Source: Escherichia coli (lineage in GTDB: Bacteria; Pseudomonadota; Gammaproteobacteria; Enterobacterales; Enterobacteriaceae). From it: 64,000 nt of DNA. This document shows positions 21,178 to 22,439 of the stretch, one piece after another. The stretch is from NCBI RefSeq assembly GCF_046105845.1, contig NZ_CP151004.1; one strand, given 5' to 3'. The position numbers and the translations under genes are program-made. The notes below the pieces were generated by a model that saw nothing but the letters and a program-made list of their open reading frames with translations, did no database searches and was not told where the DNA came from. The stretch's first letter is position 1, and each line of letters begins with the position of its first letter.

Positions 21178-21966
21178 TTAACTGTATGCATGTAGCGTAC
21201 GTTGGCAAAGTGCCGAACGTACGCAATCCTCTTTACCGAATCGGACGATCCCGACCATTTCATCTTCTTCGAAACGTTCCAGCGCGTCACTTAATCCGGA
21301 TCGCACGCCGCGAGGCAAATCGCATTGCGTGATATCACCGTTGACGATAACCGTCACGTTCTCCCCGAGGCGGGTTAAAAACATTTTCATTTGCGCGGCA
21401 GTCACATTCTGCGCCTCGTCAAGAATGACGACTGCATTTTCAAAGGTACGTCCACGCATATAGGCGAACGGCGCAATTTCCACCTTCCCTATTTCCGGTC
21501 GCAGGCAGTACTGCATAAAGGAAGCCCCTAAGCGCCGGACCAGCACGTCGTAGACCGGGCGAAAATAGGGAGCAAACTTTTCTGCGATATCACCAGGTAA
21601 GAAGCCAAGATCTTCATCGGCTTGCAGAACTGGACGGGTGACGATAATCCTGTCGACATCCTTATGTATCAGGGCCTCTGCCGCTTTTGCTGCGCTGATC
21701 CAGGTTTTTCCGCACCCGGCTTCGCCCGTGGCGAATATCAGCTGCTTACTCTCAATAGCCTTCAGATAGTGCAATTGCGCTTCATTTCGCGCGAGGATGG
21801 GCGAGGTATCGCGACTGTCGCGGGCCATACCAATGGCTTCTACGCCGCTCATCTGCACAAGCGAGGTGACCGATTCTTCTTCACGCTGCTTATGGCTGCG
21901 CGAATCCCGTCTCAGCACACGTTTTGCCTCGCGACGAGCTTTGATCACTGCTTTTTGTCTTCCCAT
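21178..21966 (-). CDS. phoH: PhoH, phosphate-starvation-inducible ATPase (conserved core from MGRQKAV...)
   Basis: Walker A GEAGCGKT and Walker B VILDEAQN. Track ORF begins at an upstream GTG (22101, 307 aa); true N-terminus uncertain. Confidence 0.8.
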   Translation of the reverse strand: MGRQKAVIKARREAKRVLRRDSRSHKQREEESVTSLVQMSGVEAIGMARDSRDTSPILARNEAQLHYLKAIESKQLIFATGEAGCGKTWISAAKAAEALIHKDVDRIIVTRPVLQADEDLGFLPGDIAEKFAPYFRPVYDVLVRRLGASFMQYCLRPEIGKVEIAPFAYMRGRTFENAVVILDEAQNVTAAQMKMFLTRLGENVTVIVNGDITQCDLPRGVRSGLSDALERFEEDEMVGIVRFGKEDCVRSALCQRTLHAYS

Positions 21967-22439
21967 GGAGAGCACCTTGAGTTGTTTGTATTCATCACAC
22001 GCGCCGTTGGCAGCGCGATTATGCGCACGAACATCAGAGGGTTGGCTTCCTTGTAAGCCATAGTTTGCTTTTGGATAAAATGCCGAAAAACGGCTACGCA
22101 CACCGTTTGCGGCGTCGGTAACACGAGTAAAGAGAGGAAGTGAGAAAAATACAGAGTGACGAAGTTGCTACCGGAGGAGAAATCTCCGCGAGTGGTGGAG
22201 CCTTGCTTAACAAAACATTGTCCAGAACAGGACGTTACCATCCGCGATCTCCATAGTGACTGACTATCACTGCCGGGAACTTCCGCTGCTACTTAATAAG
22301 TACAACAGATCTCGCATTCATTGCAACAATATATTCACTTATATTTAACTACAAAACACCATTTCAGTGACATTAGTTTCTACTGGAAAGATGACAGAGT
22401 GATGACAGTGATGAAAAAAGCTGTGTGCTTTCAGCAGGA

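Follow-up and report, generated by a model that had tools for sequence, protein, structure and literature searches.

A probable translated leader ahead of phoH in the Enterobacteriaceae, present as a common unfused allele in Escherichia coli

The stretch of DNA analysed here, which we call the window, comprises 64,000 nucleotides (nt) of Escherichia coli contig NZ_CP151004.1 (assembly GCF_046105845.1) and contains the efeB-phoH region, in which phoH lies on the minus strand. The PhoH reading frame closes with the TAA at 21180-21178, and its 262-amino-acid (aa) core begins at ATG 21966. The protein matches the Pfam family PF02562 over residues 57-261 of the 262, with a score of 258.7 bits (cut-off 27, E = 4e-77), and its translation contains the Walker A motif (GxxxxGK[ST]) in the form GEAGCGKT. 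In 80 species of Enterobacteriaceae this core is 93-100% identical to that of the window, and the ATG lies at the same position in all of them. In the public databases the same locus has been entered as a PhoH of 98, 262, 307 and 354 aa. We describe here an open reading frame (ORF) upstream of the core that probably acts as a translated leader of phoH, and that is separate from phoH in the window.

Upstream of ATG 21966 the PhoH frame stays open only as far as the TAG at 22170-22168, and the only in-frame start codons within that interval are GTG 21975 and GTG 22101. The second ORF lies in another frame. It starts at ATG 22241, at -275 relative to the PhoH ATG, with a GGAG 7 nt before it, and runs to a TGA at 21947-21945, 19 nt inside phoH (+19); its 98-aa product contains no Pfam domain. 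Because the leader frame ends at this TGA, the PhoH of the window must start at ATG 21966 using its own AAGGTG. The span from 22241 to 21178 is 1064 nt, and the window has no uninterrupted K-12-type frame of 354 aa, as the frames of ATG 22241 and the phoH stop differ. The original prediction had noted the core start MGRQKAV at 21966, the GTG at 22101, a stop near 22168, the second open frame of 98 aa at 22241-21945 and a span one nucleotide short of 1065, and our reading of the ORFs agrees on each. The 354 aa that it gave for K-12 is also right, the phoH of MG1655 (b1020, NP_415539.1) being annotated as 1065 nt and 354 aa. While the second frame is indeed open, what had been missed is that it is a conserved feature in every Enterobacteriaceae species examined.

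The K-12 MG1655 locus has the same efeB-phoH arrangement, Pho box and upstream Shine-Dalgarno sequence (SD) and ATG, and its 262-aa core differs from that of the window by 3 aa. It differs in having one more base in the linker ahead of phoH, together with 27 substitutions within 22100-22226. Because of the extra base the upstream ATG of K-12 is in frame with PhoH, whereas that of the window opens a separate ORF of 98 codons. The base is missing at 22145/22144, at a run of T (K-12 TTTTCAACC, window TTTTT-CTC). Alignment with K-12 had been set beforehand as the test, and the two sequences prove not to be identical here. The original prediction had offered either a 1-bp indel relative to K-12 or a genuine short product of about 262 aa, and the two turn out to be true together: the indel is present, and the 262-aa form is the only PhoH that can be made from the window and the one annotated by RefSeq through the Prokaryotic Genome Annotation Pipeline (PGAP), which gives it for all other E. 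coli, strains with the open frame of K-12 type among them. The indel is not, however, an isolated slip in a homopolymer. Over 21178-22585 the window and K-12 differ at 47 positions, 28 of which fall within the 127 nt of 22100-22226 (22%); the 1281 nt outside it account for 19 (1.5%). This hyperdivergent patch corresponds to two unstructured linkers between the leader hairpins described below, and the hairpin HP1 itself has one loop change only.

The unfused allele of the window is natural and common. Of 5426 complete E. coli genomes, 1946 carry an exact 50-mer across the indel site (1980 match in all), and the K-12-type 51-mer matches 3417 E. coli genomes. A query of 181 nt splits the species into 1963 genomes with at least 95% identity over 181 nt and 3446 genomes with 80-90% identity over 182 nt. 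E. coli naturally segregates fused (~63%) and unfused (~36%) phoH leader alleles. The genomes with the window-type 50-mer span several phylogroups and serotypes, and the same indel site is found in Escherichia sp. E1V33. The pattern of sequence variation suggests that the linker alleles in 22100-22226 are old alleles shuffled by recombination. The alleles cross phylogroups, O104:H4, O111 and ST648, for example, being of the window type as against K-12, O157:H7 and ST131, and other Escherichia are mosaic in the leader, with E69 window-like in its 5' half and K-12-like in its 3' half. A second deletion site, of the type found in E69 and E. albertii (GCCG-TTTTCGG), is absent from all the complete E. 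coli genomes; it is found in other Escherichia species, Citrobacter and Salmonella.

We scanned the family with one genome per species, giving 80 Enterobacteriaceae loci, 79 of them with enough upstream sequence; statistics on 83 loci combine these 79 with the window, K-12, SMS-3-5 and Z1323HEC0423. The sequence GGAGATCGCGrATG is near-invariant 270-282 nt upstream of the core ATG in 79/79 species loci. The ORF that opens at GGAG-N7-ATG is free of stops up to the PhoH start, ending within 26 nt of the PhoH ATG or running past it, in 83/83 loci, including the window. It is fused to PhoH in about two thirds of loci and unfused in one third. In 53 of the 79 species loci it is in frame, giving 352-356 aa, in Enterobacter, Klebsiella, Kosakonia, Buttiauxella, Pluralibacter, Phytobacter, Cedecea, Lelliottia and others. 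In 21 (Citrobacter, Salmonella, E. albertii, E. whittamii and one Enterobacter) it is out of frame, as it is in the window, with 97-98 codons and a TGA at +19 to +21. The remaining 5 (Kluyvera, Pseudescherichia and relatives) have a shorter out-of-frame ORF of 84 codons that ends at -26. No premature stop and no shift into the third frame was found in any of the 79. The leader-ORF TGA of the window is made by PhoH codons 7-8 (GTG ATC), and all 83 loci, fused ones included, have it at +19; in these loci the first ~13 codons of PhoH hardly vary in nucleotide sequence.

The openness of this frame is very unlikely to be accidental. Across the 83 loci the ORF frame contains 0 stops, compared with means of 2.95 and 5.51 in the two other frames, and shuffles of the leader that preserve its composition stay open with a mean probability of 0.034. 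The leaders are themselves diverse, forming 19 single-linkage clusters below 80% identity. Since all 83 loci are stop-free in this frame, against 8/83 and 0/83 in the other two, and shuffles so seldom remain open, the comparison of sequences indicates that the leader ORF is more than chance, and that selection keeps this conserved feature open. Its frame relative to PhoH has moreover changed at least six times independently, at positions that differ by lineage and always into the same alternative frame. The switches are those of the window with Escherichia sp. E1V33, of one C. amalonaticus strain, of one E. cloacae strain, of the site shared by E. albertii, Citrobacter and Salmonella, of Kluyvera (a +2 insertion) and of P. 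vulneris (a deletion).

At the level of codons the leader ORF behaves quite differently from the PhoH core. In the 55 fused sequences the N-terminal extension has heterozygosities of 0.324/0.316/0.329 at the three codon positions and a ratio of nonsynonymous to synonymous polymorphism (pN/pS) of 0.88, which RNA-level constraint, by lowering pS, may inflate; in the core of the same genomes the corresponding values are 0.050/0.022/0.369 and 0.06. The pattern is flat too in the 53 most variable codons of the extension (0.459/0.486/0.471), and the unfused ORFs give 0.234/0.222/0.212. Apparent peptide motifs of the leader, RGG..SGS and NGLQGSQ, coincide with RNA hairpins. By these measures the amino acid sequence of the leader ORF appears to be without selection, even where it is fused to PhoH.

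The RNA of the leader is structured. We ran RNAalifold on 30 diverse species and then counted pairs explicitly, and the leader contains five hairpins (Table 1). Overall 96.1% of the cells are paired, both members have changed in 17 pairs (81 cells), and 0/500 shuffles reach what is observed. When the partners were slid by 1-3 columns as a control, only 31-52% remained paired. G-U pairs are frequent in HP2 and HP3, which places the structure on the phoH sense strand. A terminator-like call on the plus strand at 22043-22060 (the stem followed by TAGTTTGCTT) was set aside because of these same G-U pairs, and no intrinsic terminator was found on the sense strand of the leader. There was no match to Rfam 15 in the leader (21966-22261) up to E = 10, in a scan of 21800-22700. 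The linker at 22117-22169 turns over in sequence but keeps its composition: in the 30 species it averages 34% C and 9% G, with C/G of at least 2.3 in 30/30, and in most it is 54 nt long. On composition only, we predict it to be a tract resembling a Rho utilization (rut) site.

Two predicted longer-range pairings are not claimed, being without covariation. One joins alignment columns 15-25 with 344-354, both of which carry the palindrome TCGCGA. The other joins the leader SD (AUGGAGA) to UCUCCAU at the PhoH start. In the window CUAUGGAGA (22247-22255) is complementary to UCUCCAUGG (21963-21971) over 9 bp including one G-U, and the two are paired in the minimum free energy (MFE) fold; other genera carry UAUCCAUGG, which introduces one mismatch. 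Such a pairing, if formed, could link the two starts.

Table 1. Features of the phoH locus in the window, with coordinates and strand
Feature	Position	Strand	Evidence or remark
phoH coding sequence, 262 aa + stop (MGRQKAV...HAYS)	21178..21966	-	ORF and translation, PF02562, RefSeq PGAP length
phoH SD, AAGGTG	21973..21978	-	invariant in 30/30 aligned species
Leader ORF, 98 codons + TGA, out of frame with phoH	21945..22241	-	overlaps first 22 nt of phoH
Leader-ORF SD, TGGAGA (GGAG 7 nt before ATG)	22248..22253	-	GGAGATCGCGrATG near-invariant in all loci
TAG closing the PhoH frame upstream	22168..22170	-	
GTG of the mechanical 307-aa ORF	22099..22101	-	rejected start
T5 run, frame-switch site	22145..22149	-	one base fewer than K-12; alignments and difference list
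Hyperdivergent patch relative to K-12	22100..22226	-	27 substitutions and one missing base
Hairpin HP0, GUCC-N6-GGAC	22220..22233	-	99% of cells paired, one compensatory change
Hairpin HP1, CGGAG...CUCCG	22170..22191	-	both-side changes in 4/7 pairs
C/U-rich, G-poor rut-like linker (predicted)	22117..22169	-	C 32%, G 9% in the window
Hairpin HP2, two-part stem	22079..22116	-	both-side changes in 7/7 outer and 2/4 inner pairs
Hairpin UGGCUU-ACAAGG-AAGCCA, GGA in loop	22043..22060	-	near-invariant; 5/6 pairs constant in 30 species
Hairpin HP3, just upstream of PhoH ribosome-binding site	21993..22023	-	3 pairs compensatory (up to 10 sequences), 99-100% paired
phoH intrinsic terminator, 11-bp stem then T-run	21138..21164	-	
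Pho box (PhoB site) of promoter P1	22390..22407	-	exact match to ChIP-seq motif TGTCATCACTCTGTCATC

The reading that we favor, with a probability of about 0.65, is that phoH is preceded by a conserved translated leader, of which the window carries an unfused allele, and that it is the act of translation rather than the peptide that has been kept by selection. On this reading ribosomes would initiate at the strong conserved start at 22241 (GGAG-N7-ATG), about 275 nt ahead of the PhoH core. The leader frame of K-12-type alleles runs on into PhoH, giving the annotated ORF of 354 aa, and in the window a base missing from the fast-evolving linker leaves the same start opening a separate ORF of 98 codons. 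Ribosomes on the leader would cover the rut-like, Rho-loading tract, shielding the mRNA from Rho, and would melt the hairpins, with the result that both transcription and ribosomes reach the PhoH start. In unfused alleles ribosomes would then stop at +19 and start again at ATG 21966, and in fused alleles they would simply read through. That leader translation is needed in this way, to shield the tract from Rho and open the hairpins, is a tentative suggestion that we think possible while judging it the less likely case. The 92-residue N-terminal extension of K-12 PhoH would then arise incidentally from leader translation and would not be a functional domain.

Several observations weigh against this reading. 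The in-frame state of two thirds of the species could mean that the long protein is itself selected, with an N-terminus that is disordered and unconstrained. Kim et al. (1993) reportedly found a K-12 product of ~39 kDa whose N-terminal sequence agreed with the 354-aa ORF. Production of the long form in K-12, if so, would still be compatible with a translated leader, since read-through is unavoidable in fused alleles. The MFE of the whole leader is not unusually stable (z = -1.0), and because this is not significant it is on covariation only that the structural case rests. To these may be added the basis of the rut-like assignment in composition, and the possible inflation of pN/pS.

The strongest competing explanation is that the 354-aa PhoH is the functional protein, and that a frameshift has cost the lineage of the window its N-terminal extension, leaving it to rely on a fallback internal start, with the 98-aa ORF as a remnant. 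The annotation of K-12 as 354 aa and the long in-frame ORF of 53/79 species speak for it, as does the ~39-kDa product reportedly found in K-12. A remnant would not be expected to behave as this ORF does, however. All 28 out-of-frame loci (26 species, the window and Z1323HEC0423) keep it open up to the PhoH start, with no nonsense alleles and no shift into the stop-rich third frame. The extension is without amino-acid-level selection even where it is fused, and the PhoH SD and ATG are invariant in the fused species as well. We therefore consider decay from a longer protein unlikely.

Programmed -1 frameshifting by the ribosome, or slippage during transcription, might instead restore a long PhoH in the unfused alleles. 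The two frames overlap by ~220 nt in the window, and a -1 slip at the T-run would, we presume, recreate a long product like that of K-12. Yet none of the 28 unfused loci has a canonical X XXY YYZ heptamer where the frames overlap, and the switch sites differ between lineages. In Kluyvera georgiana and Salmonella diarizonae the stops of the PhoH frame at -21 and -42/-45 leave little or no overlap. A run of five T is also shorter than known transcriptional slippage tracts. In view of the missing slippery heptamers this mechanism is effectively excluded.

PhoH might alternatively start at GTG 22101, giving a 307-aa form (MRSRFSAF) that is the longest mechanical ORF and is represented by at least one database entry (EFI4792297.1). 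As a start codon this GTG, which the original prediction had mentioned, is not plausible: it is GCG in K-12, and in other unfused species the in-frame alternative starts lie elsewhere or are absent. It has no evident SD, falls inside hairpin HP2 and is not used by PGAP, and for want of conservation it too is effectively excluded. Finally, the idea that one T was dropped from a homopolymer in sequencing or assembly and that the true sequence encodes 354 aa, to which the T5 run next to the missing base lends some color, is excluded by the population census, the exact 50-mer occurring in 1946 independent complete genomes and in Escherichia sp. E1V33, the 98-aa product being called on at least 1000 contigs and having an E. 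fergusonii cluster member, and the indel being embedded among 27 further substitutions.

Returning to the translated leader, its GGA sequences raise the possibility of control by CsrA, for which the consensus is RUACARGGAUGU. Comparing the leader with this consensus by eye, we find candidate sites in the loop of the near-invariant hairpin (ACAAGGA) and at the leader SD (AUGGAGA). Binding of CsrA at this hairpin loop and at the SD is a more speculative proposal, and a literature search returned no paper linking CsrA and phoH. In its fullest form the proposal would be of a translated riboregulator present throughout the Enterobacteriaceae, a structured RNA of ~300 nt with an ORF of 84-98 codons whose translation, and not its peptide, would carry transcription (against Rho) and ribosomes to PhoH, this translation possibly being gated by CsrA or a small RNA (sRNA) at the GGA sites, with residues 1-92 of K-12 PhoH as leader read-through. 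We regard this complete scheme as doubtful.

Other translated leaders act through Rho or RNA structure, including those of tnaC-tnaA and mgtL-mgtA and the CsrA/Rho-controlled pgaA leader. By analogy the phoH leader would resemble these in having an ORF whose translation rather than product is important, together with structure and a C-rich, G-poor tract. It differs from them in that its ORF is far longer (84-98 codons), covers the entire leader so as to reach or enter the regulated gene, and in most species is continuous with that gene; nor is there an evident regulatory codon cluster or arrest motif. The attenuators trpL, hisL and pheL likewise have a translated ORF upstream within a structured leader. 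Unlike them, the phoH leader has no intrinsic terminator on its sense strand and no runs of codons for a single amino acid, and its ORF is several times longer.

There are also genes with in-frame internal starts. Ribosome profiling with retapamulin (Ribo-RET) in K-12 showed that phoH is also initiated internally and in frame, at a start site noted as conserved and with enhanced conservation at synonymous positions (Meydan et al., 10.1101/520783). We assume that this start is the core ATG. Like infB, clpB and the other genes of this kind, K-12-type phoH has two starts, one upstream and one internal, that share a frame. In the window and in one third of the species the two phoH starts lie in different frames, and a model of protein isoforms is for that reason inapplicable to unfused phoH. 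The upstream part of phoH also differs from internal-start isoform genes in being without protein-level selection. A literature search for phoH with an upstream ORF, translational coupling or Rho-dependent termination gave nothing relevant, and no description of the leader ORF with its structured RNA was found in Rfam or the searchable literature.

The discrepancy of frame is itself ordinary, and the differing annotations of RefSeq and K-12 already imply it. What is added here is that the leader ORF is open throughout the Enterobacteriaceae whether fused or not, without amino acid constraint, and through an uncatalogued structured RNA. PGAP annotates a 262-aa phoH in both allele types, for example in Z1323HEC0423 (window type) and in SMS-3-5 (K-12 type), and the RefSeq model WP_000533536.1 (262 aa) has the same MGRQKAV start and length as the only PhoH possible in the window; the 275-nt upstream ORF is left unannotated in both types. 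Where the 98-aa product has been deposited it is called 'PhoH family P-loop ATPase', 'Protein PhoH' or 'hypothetical protein', despite having no PhoH domain, and in E. fergusonii a 98-aa member of its 90%-identity cluster carries the label 'hypothetical protein'.

Upstream of the leader the Pho box of promoter P1 corresponds exactly to the motif for the phoH Pho box, TGTCATCACTCTGTCATC, derived by chromatin immunoprecipitation sequencing (ChIP-seq) of PhoB (PMC10294691). Phosphorylated ArcA (ArcA-P) binds over the phoH promoter P2 (PMC3798270). An AT-rich stretch with direct repeats of the GTTAA type (GTAGTTAAATATAAGTGAATATATTGTTGCAATGAATG) lies at 22300-22360 on the minus strand, downstream of the Pho box and ahead of the leader ORF, and probably corresponds to the K-12 ArcA-P footprint over P2. 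The only hits of the Rfam scan, two matches to the family naRNA4, derived from repetitive extragenic palindromic (REP) elements, lie at 22456-22592 on the same strand, between the efeB stop and the Pho box; they score 40.4 and 32.1 bits, below the gathering score of 59.5, and are probably REP elements.

On the 3' side of phoH (19800-21180) the window has a gene for a DUF2726 protein (ORF 19929-20615, minus strand), where K-12 instead has pgaD 50 nt away. This stretch is covered to at least 80% in only 1043 E. coli genomes, with a best identity of 98.8% (ST2747 strains), and in some strains a tRNA-Ser or the RtT sRNA is inserted in it. For the phoH region the best identity is 99.4%, so the lineage of the window is not exactly represented among complete RefSeq genomes.

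The practical conflict of annotation at this locus, between the 354 aa of the K-12 reference and UniProt, the 262 aa of RefSeq and the stray entries of 98 and 307 aa, is settled by these comparisons. They offer an evolutionary reading of the internal start seen in phoH by Ribo-RET, assuming that it is the core ATG, and they point to a conserved, uncatalogued structured leader ahead of a gene of the Pho regulon. The two common natural alleles of E. coli provide a ready-made comparison for possible control of PhoH synthesis by leader translation, Rho or CsrA.

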